A stretch of DNA of 6,161 nt from Halalkalibacterium halodurans (lineage in GTDB: Bacteria; Bacillota; Bacilli; Bacillales; Bacillaceae_D): contig NZ_SNUY01000109.1 of NCBI RefSeq assembly GCF_004376175.1, forward strand, positions 1 to 6,161. The letters run 5' to 3'. The position numbers and the translations under genes were made by a program. A model generated the notes under the pieces. The model was given only the letters and a program-made list of their open reading frames with translations, searched no databases and was not told where the DNA came from. Below, piece after piece: positions 1-6,161 of the stretch; position 1 is the stretch's first letter; each line of letters starts with the position of its first letter.

Positions 1-125
1 TATACACTTCGCCCTTGACAGAACCTTCTGAAACTTTTTGTGTAGTCACCAAGGCTGCTTAAGGTCTAATATATTGGCAATTCCAAAGGAAACCCTGCGA
101 GCTTACACAAAATTCTTGACGGTAC
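1..125 (+). mobile_element. Diverged partial copy of the non-coding right end of the IS type seen at 4236-6059; cut by the window edge
   Basis: Collinear conserved blocks against 5931-6059: cttcgcccttga (7-18 vs 5931-5942), ctgaa, ctaata.a.tgg (66-77 vs 6001-6011), gaa(a)cc.tgc.ag.tt (about 90-105 vs 6022-6036). The terminal ttcttgacggtacc (112-125) matches ttttgacactacc (6047-6059). Roughly 60-65% identity by eye, with similar spacing. Confidence 0.45.
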
Positions 126-166
126 CTATTTTTATCTGCTTTTGATAAATTTATAAAAAACCTCAT

Positions 167-1058: not shown

Positions 1059-1506
1059 ATGAAGATTGAACATGTACCAAGCGTTTGCATCGCCTATGTG
1101 CGACAGGTGGGGCCTTATGCTCCTCGTAATCGTCAAACGATGGAAAATATCAAAAGCTGGGCGAGGTGAACCGTCTTCTTGATGATCAAGCGATTATCCT
1201 TGGCACTTCACAAGACCCTCCTGAAACGACTCCCCCTGAAAAATGTCGTATGATGCGTGTATCGTGATTTCAGATGAGCAGCCATTGGATGGTTCGGTTC
1301 GTGAAGGGATGCTATCTGCCGATTTATATGCGGTGTACGAAGTAAAACATACAGCAGAAGCGCTGGAGCAAGCGTGGGGGGACATTTTTTCTGAGCTCCA
1401 AAGCAGTGGGTATGAAATGGATACCAAGCCGCTGTTTGAACGGTATGCTGGCGAGATCGTTTCTAGCGGTGCGTGTGAAATCAGCGTCCCGATTAGAAAA
1501 GCGTAA
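1059..1506 (+). pseudogene. GyrI-like small-molecule-binding domain protein (effector-binding domain type), disrupted by two -1 frameshifts
   Basis: ATG at 1059 follows AAAGGAG. The reading MKIEHVPSVCIAYVRQVGPY...SWAR stops at 1167-1169. It continues in frame -1 as NRLLDDQAIILGTSQDPPETTPPEKCR (from 1172), and again in frame -1 as YDACIVISDEQ...FERYAGE...CEISVPIRKA, ending at 1506. The total of 448 nt is two bases short of a 150-codon frame. Confidence 0.7.
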
Positions 1507-2243: not shown

Positions 2244-3217
2244 CCGTTTTGCTTAACGGAGAATCTGCGATAGACGAACACTCCACCTAATGCAAGAAGG
2301 AGTCCATACAATGTGTGCTCTAAGTAGTTAGAGGCCGTCTTTGGCAGCTTCGCCCCTTTGACTGTTTTCGTCACTTCACCGTCTTGCTTTTGCACGGTTT
2401 CATTGACTTTCTTCAAGTCTTTCCCTGTCTCTTGGATTAAATCCCATCCGAAATCTTCGGCGCGAAGAAGGATATCAGCAAGGAACTCTCCCTCAAGATT
2501 GTACAATTCGATTAGTAAGTCATAGCCGTTTGTTGTCGTCATTGATACAAGCTCACGCAAAGAGAGAGCGATTTTCTCGTCGCCTTTCACGAGGTACATT
2601 TTCACGTCAAGCTCAAATAGGTCAAGCATTTCTGAAAAAATGTCGAGAAGCTCCGCAATTTGTCTTTCCGTTAACTCAGACGCTTCGTCAAACTCTTCGA
2701 ATGCCATCAAGCGATCCGATAAGTTAAGGAGACGTGCTTCAAACGCTGGATCTTCATAGTCTAACGTTTTGAAGTGCTCAATGAGACGATCCAACTCCTC
2801 TGGTGTAAGGCCGATCATCTCGAAAAAGTCGGAGTAAAGGTCGTCCCAATCTTCTCCGTTCAGATAGAACCAGATCGCAAAGTCTAAGTCATCGTAAAAC
2901 TTATAATCATCCAGCGTTTCCCCATATTCGGCAAGCAGTTCTTCAAGCTCTGCTCTCGTTAAACCATACTCATCGAGTAGTTCTTGTAAGTTTTCTTCCG
3001 TTAAAACAGGGCCTAAGAAGTCACGAAGCTCGTCCACTGAATCAAAATCAGAAATAACCAATCCCATTTCTTCTAAGTACCATTCAAGCTCTTCCTGTGA
3101 CCACTCAATGTCAGTTAAGTAGTTGTCCAGCTCCGCTTGGTTCACAGCTGCAGACGCCGTGAACGGAGAAGCGAACGCCAATACGAGTGCAAAACATAAG
3201 GCTAATAATTGTCGCAT
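2240..3217 (-). CDS. Processed acidic surface protein with a C-terminal LPKTA sortase sorting signal, 325 aa
   Basis: Signal peptide MRQLLALCFALVLAFASPFTASA/AV. The body is extremely Asp/Glu-rich, with degenerate EEL..YL.EYGLT..EL repeats. The C-terminus has LPKTAS (LPKTA at 2333-2347), then a hydrophobic segment LYGLLLALGGVFVY, then an RR..K tail. I place the start at ATG 3217, which follows GGAGG 8 nt upstream; the track start at 3232 lies inside the SD. Confidence 0.85.
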   Translation of the reverse strand: MRQLLALCFALVLAFASPFTASAAVNQAELDNYLTDIEWSQEELEWYLEEMGLVISDFDSVDELRDFLGPVLTEENLQELLDEYGLTRAELEELLAEYGETLDDYKFYDDLDFAIWFYLNGEDWDDLYSDFFEMIGLTPEELDRLIEHFKTLDYEDPAFEARLLNLSDRLMAFEEFDEASELTERQIAELLDIFSEMLDLFELDVKMYLVKGDEKIALSLRELVSMTTTNGYDLLIELYNLEGEFLADILLRAEDFGWDLIQETGKDLKKVNETVQKQDGEVTKTVKGAKLPKTASNYLEHTLYGLLLALGGVFVYRRFSVKQNG

Positions 3218-3260
3218 TCTAGGTTCCTCCATTATGAAATTTTTTACTTTTAATGAGAAA

Positions 3261-4077: not shown

Positions 4078-4212
4078 TCAGTTTCCACCTCGATGCAATT
4101 CCTGAGTGGTAAAACCGCTTTCTGATGAACTGCTGTTGATATTGACTTGATCTGGACTTGCAAAGCCGAACACAAAGCCTGCTACAATCAACGTTAAAAT
4201 TGTCTTTTTCAT
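4078..4212 (-). CDS. Small secreted-type pro-peptide, paralog 1 (44 aa): MKKTILTLIVAGFVFGFASPDQVNINSSSSESGFTTQELHRGGN
   Basis: Hand translation of the minus strand. The SD is AGGAGG (4228-4223), 10 nt before ATG 4212. The 22 nt upstream of the ATG match those of paralog 2 at 19/22 positions. It has the same architecture, with shared FGF(A/V)SP and NSSS..GFT.Q blocks. Confidence 0.65.
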   Translation of the reverse strand: MKKTILTLIVAGFVFGFASPDQVNINSSSSESGFTTQELHRGGN

Positions 4213-4227
4213 ACTCTCTCTGCCTCC

Positions 4228-4235
4228 TCTTGTGT
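4228..4235. repeat. Left copy of the 8-bp target-site duplication TCTTGTGT
   Basis: The identical octamer occurs at 6060-6067, immediately outside the opposite IS end. The preceding cc is also shared, so the duplication could be read as up to 10 bp. Confidence 0.7.
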
Positions 4236-4252
4236 CGTATTGTCAAAACTTT
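4236..4252 (+). repeat. IS left terminal inverted repeat (IRL) CGTATTGTCAAAACTTT
   Basis: Matches the reverse complement of 6043-6059 (GGTAGTGTCAAAAGTTC) at 13/17 positions. The core is TGTCAAAA. Confidence 0.7.
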
Positions 4253-4305
4253 ATATAAAAATAGGCTATTAAATCCTATGTTAGAGGGCTTTATAAGCAA
4301 AAAAA

Positions 4306-4333
4306 TTGCCACTCCCTGATTTCTGTAGATAAT
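4306..4333 (+). promoter_or_regulatory. Candidate transposase promoter
   Basis: TTGCCA (4306-4311), a 16-nt spacer, then GATAAT (4328-4333). Downstream are AAAGGA (4361-4366) and the TTG start at 4376. Confidence 0.4.
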
Positions 4334-4375
4334 TGAGGTTACCATACACCCAATTCCAGAAAAGGACGTGACAAT

Positions 4376-5827
4376 TTGTACCCTCAAATTCTAACCTATT
4401 TATTAACTTTTATAGACTATCAAGAACAAATTATTCGAACTGTGCTTACTCTTTTGATTGGACAAAGCATGTTCGATAAACCAAAAGAAGCTCCTGTTAA
4501 TCAGCCTTATCGAAAGCTTCTAATTGATGATTTACCTATCCTTGATAAGGTAGAAAAGCTCGCTTATCAGCTTTTATTAACGGAATACCTTCAATCAAAA
4601 GGAAAACCGTTAAAACCAGTACGCCGTCGAGCCAATTCTACGCCCGTACCTTCTGCATTGTGTTGTCCTAAGTGTGGTGCCCCTTCTGCGTATTTGTACG
4701 CAAATAACGGAGGAAAAGGACAATATCAATGTAAGGTGTGTGCGTGTGTTTTCAATAAAAATAGTCGTTATCAGAAAGAGGCCATTCTTAAGTGTCCTCA
4801 CTGCCTTAAACCGCTTGAAAAAATTAAAGAACGAAAAGATTTTCACGTGTTTAAGTGCAAAAATGATATGTGTACCTATTATCAAAAAAACTTGAGCGCC
4901 ATGACCAAAAAAGAGAAAAAACAATTTAAAGAAGATCCACAATCGCTGAAAGTACGCTACATTTACCGGAAGTTCCACATCGACTATCAACCGTTATCAA
5001 AACAATCACCAAAACAGCCAAAAGTCGATTTATCAAGATTGTATGTTTCCCCACATACGCTTGGTCTCATCTTGACGTATCATGTCAATTACGGATTATC
5101 GGCCCGTAACCCGGCCGCGATCAGGAAGGATATTCACGGCGTGTCTGTCTCCCATCAAAGTATCCTAAACTACGAAAACAGCGTCGCATTATGGCTCAAG
5201 CCTTATATCGACTACTTTCCGTATGAGCTCTCGGATCAATTTTGTGGGGATGAAACGTACATCCGTGTCAATGGTCGTTGGCATTATCTGTTTTTATTTT
5301 TTGATGCGGTAAAGAAAGTCATTCTTTCGTATCCTGTATCACCAAATCGAGATACCGCAACAGCGATACGAGCGATTGATGAAGTATTAGTGAAGCTGAA
5401 AGAGATTCCAGAAAATCTACAGTTGGTTGTAGATGGTAATCCAATCTATTTGTTAGCACAGCATTTCTTCGCAGAGAATCAAATATCGTTTGACGTCAAA
5501 CAGGTCATCGGGCTAACAAATGAAGACGATGTCTCTAGAGAGTATCGACCTCTCAAGCAAATCATTGAACGACTAAATCGCACGTTTAAAGGGAATTATC
5601 GTTCGACGCACGGCTTTGGTTCTGAACAGGGATCTGTTTCTTTTGTGACATTGTTTGTGGCTTACTTTAACTTCTTACGTCCACATTCTTCACTCGAAGG
5701 GAAAGTGCCAGTAACAATTCCAGAATTAGAAAAGCTACCAACCATGCCCGCGAGATGGACAACCCTTATTGGATTAGCTCAAGACTGGATTCAACACCAA
5801 CAGTCAGCCGAACTTTTGGTTAGCTGA
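4376..5827 (+). CDS. DDE transposase, IS6/IS240-type catalytic core with an N-terminal double zinc-ribbon extension, 483 aa
   Basis: The core contains GDETYIRVNGRWHYLF (D292), LVVDGNP (D353) and QIIERLNRTFK (E398, K405). The spacing is D-61-D-45-E with K at E+7. The N-terminus contains CCPKC..x18..CKVCAC and CPHC..x17..CKNDMC. The start could be TTG 4376 (preceded by AAAGGA) or ATG 4469. Confidence 0.9.
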   Translation: MYPQILTYLLTFIDYQEQIIRTVLTLLIGQSMFDKPKEAPVNQPYRKLLIDDLPILDKVEKLAYQLLLTEYLQSKGKPLKPVRRRANSTPVPSALCCPKCGAPSAYLYANNGGKGQYQCKVCACVFNKNSRYQKEAILKCPHCLKPLEKIKERKDFHVFKCKNDMCTYYQKNLSAMTKKEKKQFKEDPQSLKVRYIYRKFHIDYQPLSKQSPKQPKVDLSRLYVSPHTLGLILTYHVNYGLSARNPAAIRKDIHGVSVSHQSILNYENSVALWLKPYIDYFPYELSDQFCGDETYIRVNGRWHYLFLFFDAVKKVILSYPVSPNRDTATAIRAIDEVLVKLKEIPENLQLVVDGNPIYLLAQHFFAENQISFDVKQVIGLTNEDDVSREYRPLKQIIERLNRTFKGNYRSTHGFGSEQGSVSFVTLFVAYFNFLRPHSSLEGKVPVTIPELEKLPTMPARWTTLIGLAQDWIQHQQSAELLVS

Positions 5828-5837
5828 GCCCTATTCA

Positions 5838-5987
5838 GCTATCGGCGAAGCGAACTCTTGACAATCCGAACTTGCCAATGGTTTAAAATGGAAAAAGTCA
5901 AGGGTTATTTGGCATGCCTACTTTTGTTCCCTTCGCCCTTGATTGACCTCTGAATAAACCATTGGCGTGTTTGTCAAGAGCGATAGC
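5838..5987. other. Nested inverted-repeat / long-hairpin region in the IS 3' non-coding segment (candidate structured RNA or transposase-binding array)
   Basis: Perfect pairings: 5838-5844/5981-5987 (7 bp), 5855-5864/5971-5980 (10 bp) and 5874-5885/5955-5966 (12 bp). A fourth pairing, 5896-5904/5936-5944, is 9 bp including one G-U. The apical palindrome GGCATGCC is at 5911-5918. Confidence 0.6.
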
Positions 5988-6042
5988 GCGGCCTTTCCAC
6001 CTAATAAATGGTAGGTAGTATGAACCGTGCTAGTTTTTCATA

Positions 6043-6059
6043 GAACTTTTGACACTACC
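6043..6059 (+). repeat. IS right terminal inverted repeat (IRR) GAACTTTTGACACTACC
   Basis: Inverted match to IRL (13/17). It contains a perfect TTGACA at 6049-6054. Confidence 0.7.
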
Positions 6060-6067
6060 TCTTGTGT
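6060..6067. repeat. Right copy of the 8-bp target-site duplication TCTTGTGT; also the spacer between two IS copies
   Basis: Identical to 4228-4235. It lies between the IRR of copy 1 (ends 6059) and the IRL of copy 2 (starts 6068). Confidence 0.7.
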
Positions 6068-6161
6068 CGTATTGTCAAAACTTTATATAAAAATAGGTTA
6101 TTAAATCCTATGTTAGAGGGCTTTATAAGCAAAAAAATTGCCACCCCCTGATTTCTGTAGA
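6068..6161 (+). mobile_element. Left end of a second, directly oriented IS copy (partial; runs off the window)
   Basis: 6060-6161 matches 4228-4329 at 100/102 positions with no indels, at an offset of 1832 bp (IS length plus 8). The mismatches are at 4266/6098 and 4313/6145. Confidence 0.8.

Follow-up and report, generated by a model that had tools for sequence, protein, structure and literature searches.

Long structured non-coding ends are thought to separate the insertion sequences (IS) of the IS110/IS1111 group from those with DDE transposases, and a long 3' non-coding region has been stated to be absent from the DDE families (PMC11187229). Hallmarks of IS110-group elements are a guide that matches the flanking DNA and a promoter at the junction of the joined ends (PMC11208160); in an IS110 element from a Firmicute only the top strand is reported to be excised and rejoined, with circles that are single- or double-stranded (bioRxiv 10.1101/2025.10.25.684509). 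Relatives of IS6 and IS26 are replicative (PMC8477213), and how the long IS6-like clade moves was stated to be unknown by Harmer and Hall (PMC6807381). Gram-positive plasmids and F usually prime their second strand at a folded single strand that the host polymerase takes as a promoter (PMC4595007). Here we describe how a long IS6/IS26-like insertion sequence is built at its right end, in a 6,161-nt stretch of Halalkalibacterium halodurans DNA (contig NZ_SNUY01000109.1; the window). Directly 3' of its transposase gene (tnp) lies a nested hairpin that is a real, conserved and modular structured cassette without an entry in curated libraries. The core (~5807-5993) of this right-end module (5828-6059) is a discrete cassette that moved between transposon types.

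A preliminary description of this DNA, made from its letters alone, had placed four stems in nested order at the right end, and our pair list agrees with it (Table 1). Folded as RNA, the 150-mer reaches -55.5 kcal/mol (z = -5.8; none of 200 shuffles equals it), and folded as DNA -28.8 kcal/mol (z = -5.1); the whole 232 nt give z = -4.0 on the + strand and z = -3.5 on the - strand. Also in line with that description, no open reading frame (ORF) of at least 40 aa follows the tnp stop codon. The window and nine diverse loci, scanned against Rfam, returned no relevant match, and DDE families are stated to lack a long 3' non-coding region (PMC11187229); this supports the suggestion that a structured element of this kind would be new, none being described for DDE insertion sequences.

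Table 1. Features of the insertion sequence, its right-end cassette and the neighbouring DNA (positions in the window).
Feature	Position	Strand	Basis or remark
IS copy 1, long IS6/IS26-like type	4236-6059	+	1824 bp
Target duplication TCTTGTGT, 8 bp	4228-4235 (left) = 6060-6067 (right)		identical copies
Transposase promoter TTGCCA-16-GATAAT	4306-4333	+	consensus promoter scan; conserved in left ends
Transposase gene, 483 aa, TTG start	4376-5827	+	ORF list; stop codon 5825-5827
Box (a) GCCGAACTTTTGGTTAGCTGAGCCCT	5807-5832	+	spans tnp stop codon; direct repeat of box (b)
Four-stem nested hairpin	5838-5987	+	folding and covariation; 150 nt
Stem S1	5838-5844/5981-5987		7 bp, perfect
Mini-hairpin GCGAAGC	5845-5851	+	internal loop between S1 and S2
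Stem S2	5855-5864/5971-5980		10 bp, perfect
TTGACA, -35-like box	5858-5863	+	5' arm of S2
Unpaired 5' bulge between S2 and S3	5865-5869	+	TCCGA here, CCGAA(C) in family; 3' arm has no opposing bases
Stem S3	5873-5885/5955-5967		perfect 12-bp core 5874-5885/5955-5966
TAAAAT, -10-like box (TAnnnT)	5884-5889	+	boundary of S3 and internal loop
Stem S4	5896-5905/5935-5944		10 pairs including G-T
Apical palindrome GGCATGCC	5911-5918
Box (b) GCCTACTTTTGTTCCCTTCGCCCTTG	5916-5941	+	3' half of apical loop and 3' arm of S4
Variable tail, hairpin to terminal repeat	5988-6032	+	poorly conserved in alignments
Right terminal inverted repeat GTTTTTCATAGAACTTTTGACACTACC	6033-6059	+	kept in all family members; pairs with 4237-4251
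Second, tandem IS copy, start only (runs off window)	6068-6161	+	6058-6161 98% identical to 4226-4329
Third, diverged family member, right end	1-126	+	box (b) end to terminus ...CTTGACGGTACC; alignment
Two paralogous ORFs, 43 and 44 aa	3893-4024, 4078-4212	-	N-termini signal-peptide-like (MKK..L.L.AAG..FGF), Ser-rich tails
Two ORFs (region 1060-1506)	966-1169, 1243-1506	+	resemble one frameshift-broken gene

The transposase family is very large, with 3963 of 8000 scored candidates at E <= 1e-20 in a protein search. Our sample comprised 80 metagenomic loci, plasmid copies and two genomic loci, the latter being the only related loci that a search of the genome collection returned. Nearly all collected loci have 200-300 non-coding bases from the tnp stop codon to the right terminal repeat, with the same nested hairpin. 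A covariance model built on 23 close relatives gave a full-length match on the + strand in at least 63 loci with transposases 47-96% identical, including copies from Geobacillus (66%) and Lactiplantibacillus (47%). In an alignment of 55 sequences fitted to this model, 93.6% of cells are paired, compared with 32-45% in slid-partner controls, and 28 of the 41 pairs change on both sides (339 compensatory cells); none of 500 shuffles matched the observed covariation. A structure-blind MAFFT alignment likewise recovered covariation in the outer stems 1 and 2, with one pair occurring as A-U 23 times, as C-G 12 times and as U-A 7 times. This abundant compensatory change among aligned copies upholds the suggestion that the region is a functional structured element, and alignment confirmed the blocks that the preliminary description had seen shared with the diverged copy at 1-125. 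S2 is the least variable stem, with four of its ten pairs invariant. Nearly all pairing is of the Watson-Crick type: by hand tally, stem interiors hold about 31 G-T and about 16 A-C cells out of 2210, and sites that switch between A-T and G-C show about 1% G-T. On the + strand, G-U outnumbers A-C by 110 to 53.

In a few distant members the hairpin is absent or replaced. The Pediococcus (L004) and Clostridium (L005) loci are without a comparable fold, the right ends of L026 and L030 carry a rearranged version with TTGTCAAG/CTTGAC arms at the apex, and L077 has a near-perfect hairpin of ~130 nt with unrelated sequence at 2925-3222. Plasmid BLAST searches with both versions of the cassette found only IS copies, or nothing. 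One plasmid copy (L007, 2350-2452; Aeromonas sp. Ne-1 plasmid pNe-1) is a truncated copy of this Bacillota-type IS broken by a run of N, and the Aeromonas assignment or the assembly of this record may be unreliable.

The cassette is not confined to IS6-like elements. A scan of viral contigs for its conserved core found 26 loci, only one of which has an IS6-like transposase. The other 25 (L089-L113) carry a full-length hairpin homologue (75-86 bits) directly 3' of a transposase gene, and in the lineage covered by the domain scan that gene encodes DEDD_Tnp_IS110 and Transposase_20 domains. Their cassette has the same layout, with box (a), a GCGCAGC mini-hairpin, CCCTTGACAAACCGAA, TATCCT and box (b). 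In three loci (L097, L108 and L111) the gene, judged by its C-terminal sequence, belongs to a second, diverged IS110-type lineage, and the cassette there is nearly identical to that of the other IS110-type loci. Similarity between IS6-like and IS110-type elements is limited to the cassette; their tails and termini differ. The covariation statistics were unchanged when the IS110-type sequences were added. At their left ends, the IS110-type carriers have a variable guide-like segment that matches the left flank (for example, L107 8926-10600): GAACACCTCCT goes with a flank ending in CACCTC, GAACATCACCT with one ending in GGATCAC and GAGGCGTTACT with one ending in GGCGTTAC, each followed by CT. 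Their joined ends would give the promoter TTGACT-17-TATTAT. With the guide placed in the left end, the cassette is not the bridge RNA of these elements. Since it serves unrelated transposases, its partner is more likely to be a host factor than the transposase, and most plausibly is one. In two carriers, L096 and L105, guide and flank seem swapped.

Four features of the fold are conserved on the tnp-sense strand only, namely the mini-hairpin, the bulge, TTGACA and the TAnnnT box; all strand-specific motifs sit on the top strand, the one that the IS110 element is reported to excise. The mini-hairpin has the family form GCGNAGC or GCGNNAGC, exact in about 46 of the 55 copies by hand count; in the variants ACGAAGT, CCGAAGG and GTGAAAC the closing pairs are changed compensatorily and pairing is kept. 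Two G-C pairs closing a G...A loop define the DNA mini-hairpin motif, and the cassette has them. Motifs of the GCGNAGC type are extraordinarily stable as DNA mini-hairpins and much weaker as RNA; they occur at the single-strand priming sites of G4, St-1 and alpha3 and in the N4 hairpin promoters, and CCGAAGG is found in ssiA of RSF1010 (PMC13037366).

TTGACA and TAnnnT are the most conserved letters of the cassette. The -35-like box reads TTGACA in 41 of 55 copies and otherwise TTTACA or TTGACC; the -10-like box reads TAnnnT in 52 of 55 (TAAAAT in 41, also TACAAT, TATAAT and TAAACT), and its partner on the opposite arm is variable. The preliminary description had joined TTGACA to a TTTAAA at 5882-5887, and both are present, but it is TAAAAT that is conserved. 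Among the 52 copies with a placeable -10 box, 13 have TGn before it and 49 have a spacer of 19-20 nt. Two loci (L073 and L086) have a spacer of 16-17 nt, with TTGACA-17-TACAAT in textbook promoter form. A consensus scan of the window called no promoter at the hairpin boxes.

Boxes (a) and (b) form a direct repeat whose two copies vary together. The words common to both differ by lineage (GCCTAAATTTTG, GCCTATATATCTG, CCTTTATATCTTT, GTCTTGTTTTT and CTTTTTATCTTT), and the longest common substring averages 9.3 nt in cognate pairs vs 5.6 nt in non-cognate pairs, with a shared word of at least 9 nt in 54% of the former and 3.6% of the latter. No consistent complementary partner of box (b) emerged from an RNA duplex scan of the whole mRNA or from an exact-word search, nor did local alignment of box (b) with the left end and tail, in both orientations, give a consistent complementary site; comparison with the flanks yielded none either. 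The repeat remains the least explained feature of the cassette.

Several further candidates around the fold were rejected. An outer stem S0, in which GAGCCC of box (a) would pair with GGGC past S1, is found in 21 of 55 copies and is not above shuffles; an alternative pairing between box (a) and the 5' arm of S4 is not kept in two lineages, those of L071 and L059, as read from their sequences; and small ORFs in the loop and 3' arms, on both strands, shift frame among close relatives and have an unconserved start codon. No intrinsic or bidirectional terminator was called by a scan of 4200-6161, that is, nowhere in the element. The window copy has TTT 7 nt past S1, and T runs of at least four follow the hairpin in 12 of 55 copies, with runs of 6-7 confined to one clade; a terminator function would at most be peculiar to that clade.

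The insertion sites show a pattern of their own. In 35 of 41 IS6-like left flanks, CAT-N-(Shine-Dalgarno complement)-N5-16 stands by the left end, vs none of 40 in the mirrored right-flank test: the elements lie just upstream of a ribosome-binding site, with the gene reading away from the element. In the window, CCTCC at 4223-4227, a Shine-Dalgarno complement, directly precedes the left target duplication. CCCCCT is favoured in the flanks and is similar to the left-end motif TTGCCACCCCCT; comparison of flanks with this motif gave no cognate signal (p = 0.39). In the IS110-type carriers, the insertion point is within the Shine-Dalgarno sequence (left flank ...CACCTC, core CT), and the orientation is the same.

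We tentatively favour the reading that the cassette is a host-recognised fold of the single-stranded top strand, a putative hairpin promoter or priming signal like a single-strand origin. It is a long, imperfect hairpin of one strand that is conserved as a structure, as such origins are. With the fold, the covariation, the strand-specific motifs, the modularity and the co-varying repeat demonstrated, we infer the following course of events. Stems 1-4 would form when the top strand is unwound or released in replicative transposition. TTGACA, held as duplex in stem 2, and TAnnnT, exposed where stem 3 ends, would then recruit the reader of the fold, most likely RNA polymerase, and a short RNA would be templated by the 3' arm of stem 4 and box (b). 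This RNA would prime synthesis of the complementary strand leftwards across tnp. Conceivably, box (a), as a second primer template outside the fold, would offer the primer a place to anneal again once past these stems; a copy of one box annealing to the other would account for a repeat without a complementary partner. The type of the mini-hairpin, the near-absence of interior G-U and the fact that the letters read by polymerase are the best conserved incline us towards action as single-stranded DNA rather than RNA. A single-stranded stage of the carriers is plausible, given the top-strand excision reported for an IS110 element and the replicative movement of IS6/IS26 relatives.

Several points weigh against this reading. 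A symmetric Shapiro intermediate would need no single-strand origin, and we know of no DDE insertion sequence that uses one. In sequence the cassette has no resemblance to known origins, in that Rfam gave no match and the plasmid matches were only IS copies. The CS-6 of ssoA is TAGCGT in the terminal loop; the ssoA signature is not found here, the apical loop TTATTTGGCATGCCTACTTTTGTTCCCTTC being without CS-6 and TAGCGA being seen only in the side mini-hairpin of some variants. The spacing of the boxes, 19-20 nt in linear and ~15 in folded form, is canonical in neither. The 55-sequence alignment, being fitted to the covariance model, leans towards structure. Finally, with no terminator found after tnp, transcripts of the gene must run through the region as their 3' untranslated region (UTR), and a role as RNA is equally available.

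Such a role is possible, though less probable in our view. The cassette would be a 3'-UTR hairpin that forms only in RNA reaching it from tnp, where it stabilises, terminates or insulates the message, and has an ordinary double-stranded outward promoter, TTGACA...TAAAAT, in its 5' arm; with the same reserve we would add that RNAs begun at this embedded promoter are without the 5' arms and would escape the structure. No terminator separates the stop codon from the cassette that immediately follows it, and the left end has the same design with a promoter in the 5' arm. Because the elements insert downstream of a gene's promoter and ahead of its Shine-Dalgarno sequence, transcription should read into the right end, and an outward promoter could oppose it. 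TGn and the canonical spacing of L073 and L086 suit a promoter, but the spacer in most copies and the negative promoter scan do not; the hairpin is followed by 6-7 T in one clade, but by four or more in only 12 of 55 copies; and G-U exceeds A-C on the + strand, but stem interiors hold fewer G-U pairs than is usual in RNA families. ISPpu9 offers a precedent for a small-RNA module downstream of tnp (PMC12288879). No target in the mRNA was found for the free 3' arms or box (b), and a GNA triloop closed by two pairs is not specially stable as RNA (PMC13037366).

Far less probable is a relic without present function, that is, a fossil tandem of IS and miniature element or an inverted duplication, its palindrome kept by DNA-level correction. 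Direct reading confirmed that 5852-5868 matches the right terminal inverted repeat (IRR) at 13 of 17 positions and that 5966-5982 resembles the left one (IRL), so that 5966-6059 is bounded like a 94-bp miniature element; tandem insertion is frequent in the family (the window, L014 and L079), and the small-RNA module of ISPpu9 is a hitchhiking miniature inverted-repeat transposable element (MITE; PMC12288879). However, the cassette is kept as transposases diverge to 47% identity, with the adjacent tail unconserved, and the mini-hairpin, bulge and -10 box are conserved on one arm only. The preliminary description had raised both a nested insertion and a free-standing MITE. Retention of 5870-6042 in the diverged copies means that it is not a recent nested insertion, and no duplication flanks 5966-6059 and no solo copy was found in plasmids or collected loci.

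It is less probable still that the fold exists as protein-binding DNA, with the terminal repeats and S2 contributing their TTGACA cores to an array of transposase sites (pseudo-ends) for synapsis or autoregulation, as had also been proposed. The matches to the terminal repeats and the four invariant pairs of S2 would suit such an array, but stems 1, 3 and 4 vary in sequence yet remain complementary, which a sequence-reading protein does not explain, and the cassette also accompanies unrelated DEDD transposases with different termini. Least probable of all is the guide RNA that had been mooted, with loops like those of bridge or seekRNAs that base-pair to donor as well as target DNA and direct the DDE transposase towards Shine-Dalgarno-adjacent sites: the striking preference for site and orientation, the C/U-rich, anti-Shine-Dalgarno-like run that ends box (b), the presence of the cassette in IS110-family elements and a loop that copies a DNA site, box (a), directly as left guides of bridge RNAs do (PMC11208160) would fit it, but flanks compared with boxes (a) and (b), in either orientation, show no cognate similarity (12.4 cognate vs 12.1 non-cognate), the left-end motif gives no cognate signal either, box (a) lies within the element, 230 bp short of its terminus, and hence is not a donor end, and the variable guide of the IS110-type carriers lies outside the cassette.

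Returning to the priming signal, one extension of it seems possible, if doubtful: the cassette may be a portable priming device for single-stranded DNA common to RNA-guided IS110-type and DDE IS6-like elements, made up of a hairpin promoter and a DNA mini-hairpin, with the primer template duplicated outside the fold to allow relocation of the primer. In that case, a single-stranded intermediate of the top strand would occur in both kinds of element, and each would bring its own second-strand signal. Bolder still, if unlikely, is the idea that an RNA made from the cassette may help the DDE transposase reach targets near Shine-Dalgarno sequences.

The borders of IS copy 1 were set by alignment to two reference-genome relatives (L001 and L002), from Halalkalibacter oceani (transposase 96% identical) and Peribacillus tepidiphilus (79%), and its terminal repeats are CGTATTGTCAAAA... 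on the left and ...TTTTGACACTACC on the right. The transposase consists of an N-terminal extension, a Cys-rich region and a DDE domain, and in homologues the CxxC motifs are invariant and the extension is conserved. It matches DDE_Tnp_IS240 of Pfam (PF13610; 41.5 bits vs a cut-off of 27), and its match to the IS6 family of NCBIfam is weak (68.5 bits, under the cut-off of 125). The 1824-bp element, judged from its sequence, fits the long IS6/IS26-like clade VIII / clade i (PMC6807381, PMC7986276): the DDE transposase is IS240-like and carries both a zinc-finger region and the N-terminal extension, and the element has an 8-bp duplication, repeats of at least 18 bp, non-complementary outermost bases and a length of more than 1700 bp (PMC6807381). 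Perfect 8-bp duplications were found in 10 of 41 related loci.

The second IS copy in the window differs at 2 of 104 compared bases. The order at the tandem junction is IRR, 8 bp, IRL; it is the same in L079, and the spacer in L014 is 4 bp. Such tandems are consistent with dimer or junction forms, or with repeated insertion at one hot spot; repeated use of a single site would explain the arrangement in the window. At the left end, the -35 box of the tnp promoter (TTGCCA, 4306) lies within a CTTGCCAC-type segment able to pair with the tnp ribosome-binding site (GTGACAA, ~4367-4373), as read from the sequences; with this pairing, read-in transcripts would be translationally silent, and the design is conserved family-wide. 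Ahead of the insertion sequence, the window further contains rlmH, a sortase-like gene and a pair of small paralogous peptide genes; the insertion sequence lies on the promoter side of the second small paralogous ORF. The ORF pair at 966-1169 and 1243-1506, possibly encoding an effector-binding domain protein, is probably a pseudogene.

These results bear on the division between the two groups of insertion sequences. A long structured end is present in a DDE family that counts thousands of homologues in Bacillota, and it is the same cassette as in two IS110-type lineages; sharing across types suggests that the function is linked to the host or to a replicative step common to both. Should the cassette prove to be a priming signal, it would offer a handle on how the long IS6-like clade moves and on second-strand synthesis of the top-strand IS110 intermediates. 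If it acts as RNA, it represents a new, widespread and covarying RNA family missing from Rfam. The Shine-Dalgarno-proximal, orientation-specific insertion of both element types is a second testable oddity.

Among known systems, the window IS resembles ISTet2, ISHahy6 and ISHco2 of clade VIII / clade i, which by published descriptions exceed 1700 bp and encode a transposase of ~450-480 aa. This clade shares with it the zinc-finger region, N-terminal extension, 8-bp duplication and non-complementary outermost bases, and the same papers make no mention of a 230-bp structured right end or of Shine-Dalgarno-proximal targeting (PMC6807381, PMC7986276).

The left ends of IS10, IS50 and IS200 carry hairpins that protect against read-through, with a promoter element in the 5' arm, and form only in transcripts from outside. 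Those hairpins sequester a ribosome-binding site, whereas the 3' arm of the cassette holds nothing translatable and its structure is four times longer. The bridge RNAs and seekRNAs of IS110/IS1111 share with the cassette a non-coding end that is long and structured (in IS1111, too, it lies 3' of tnp), a promoter of sigma-70-like type, a loop that copies a DNA site directly and occurrence in IS110-family elements. Unlike theirs, the loops of the cassette do not match the flanks, and the guide of its IS110-type carriers is in the left end; the transposase of the window is DDE, not DEDD, and the structure is one long hairpin rather than two loop-bearing stem-loops. Closer in organisation is the ssr9 module of ISPpu9 (MITEPpu9, IS110 family), also a discrete, exchangeable non-coding module immediately downstream of tnp that repeats sequence from elsewhere in the element (PMC12288879). 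It has its own end boxes and occurs solo, whereas the cassette was found only inside elements, differs in sequence and structure and is also present in a DDE family.

The nearest likeness to our preferred reading is with the single-strand origins (sso) of rolling-circle plasmids and ICEBs1, Frpo of the F plasmid and the ssi sites of G4 and RSF1010. From these the cassette differs in lying inside insertion sequences, directly 3' of tnp, in having no sequence similarity and no CS-6/RSB signature, and in its (a)/(b) direct repeat, a feature that known origins do not have. In common with them it is a strand-specific hairpin of 130-200 nt that is conserved as a structure. Their folds contain promoter-like boxes that host RNA polymerase reads to make a primer (PMC4595007), of which the cassette has putative equivalents, and it shares with them the GCGNAGC and CCGAAGG mini-hairpins of priming sites (PMC13037366) as well as hosts among the Bacillota.

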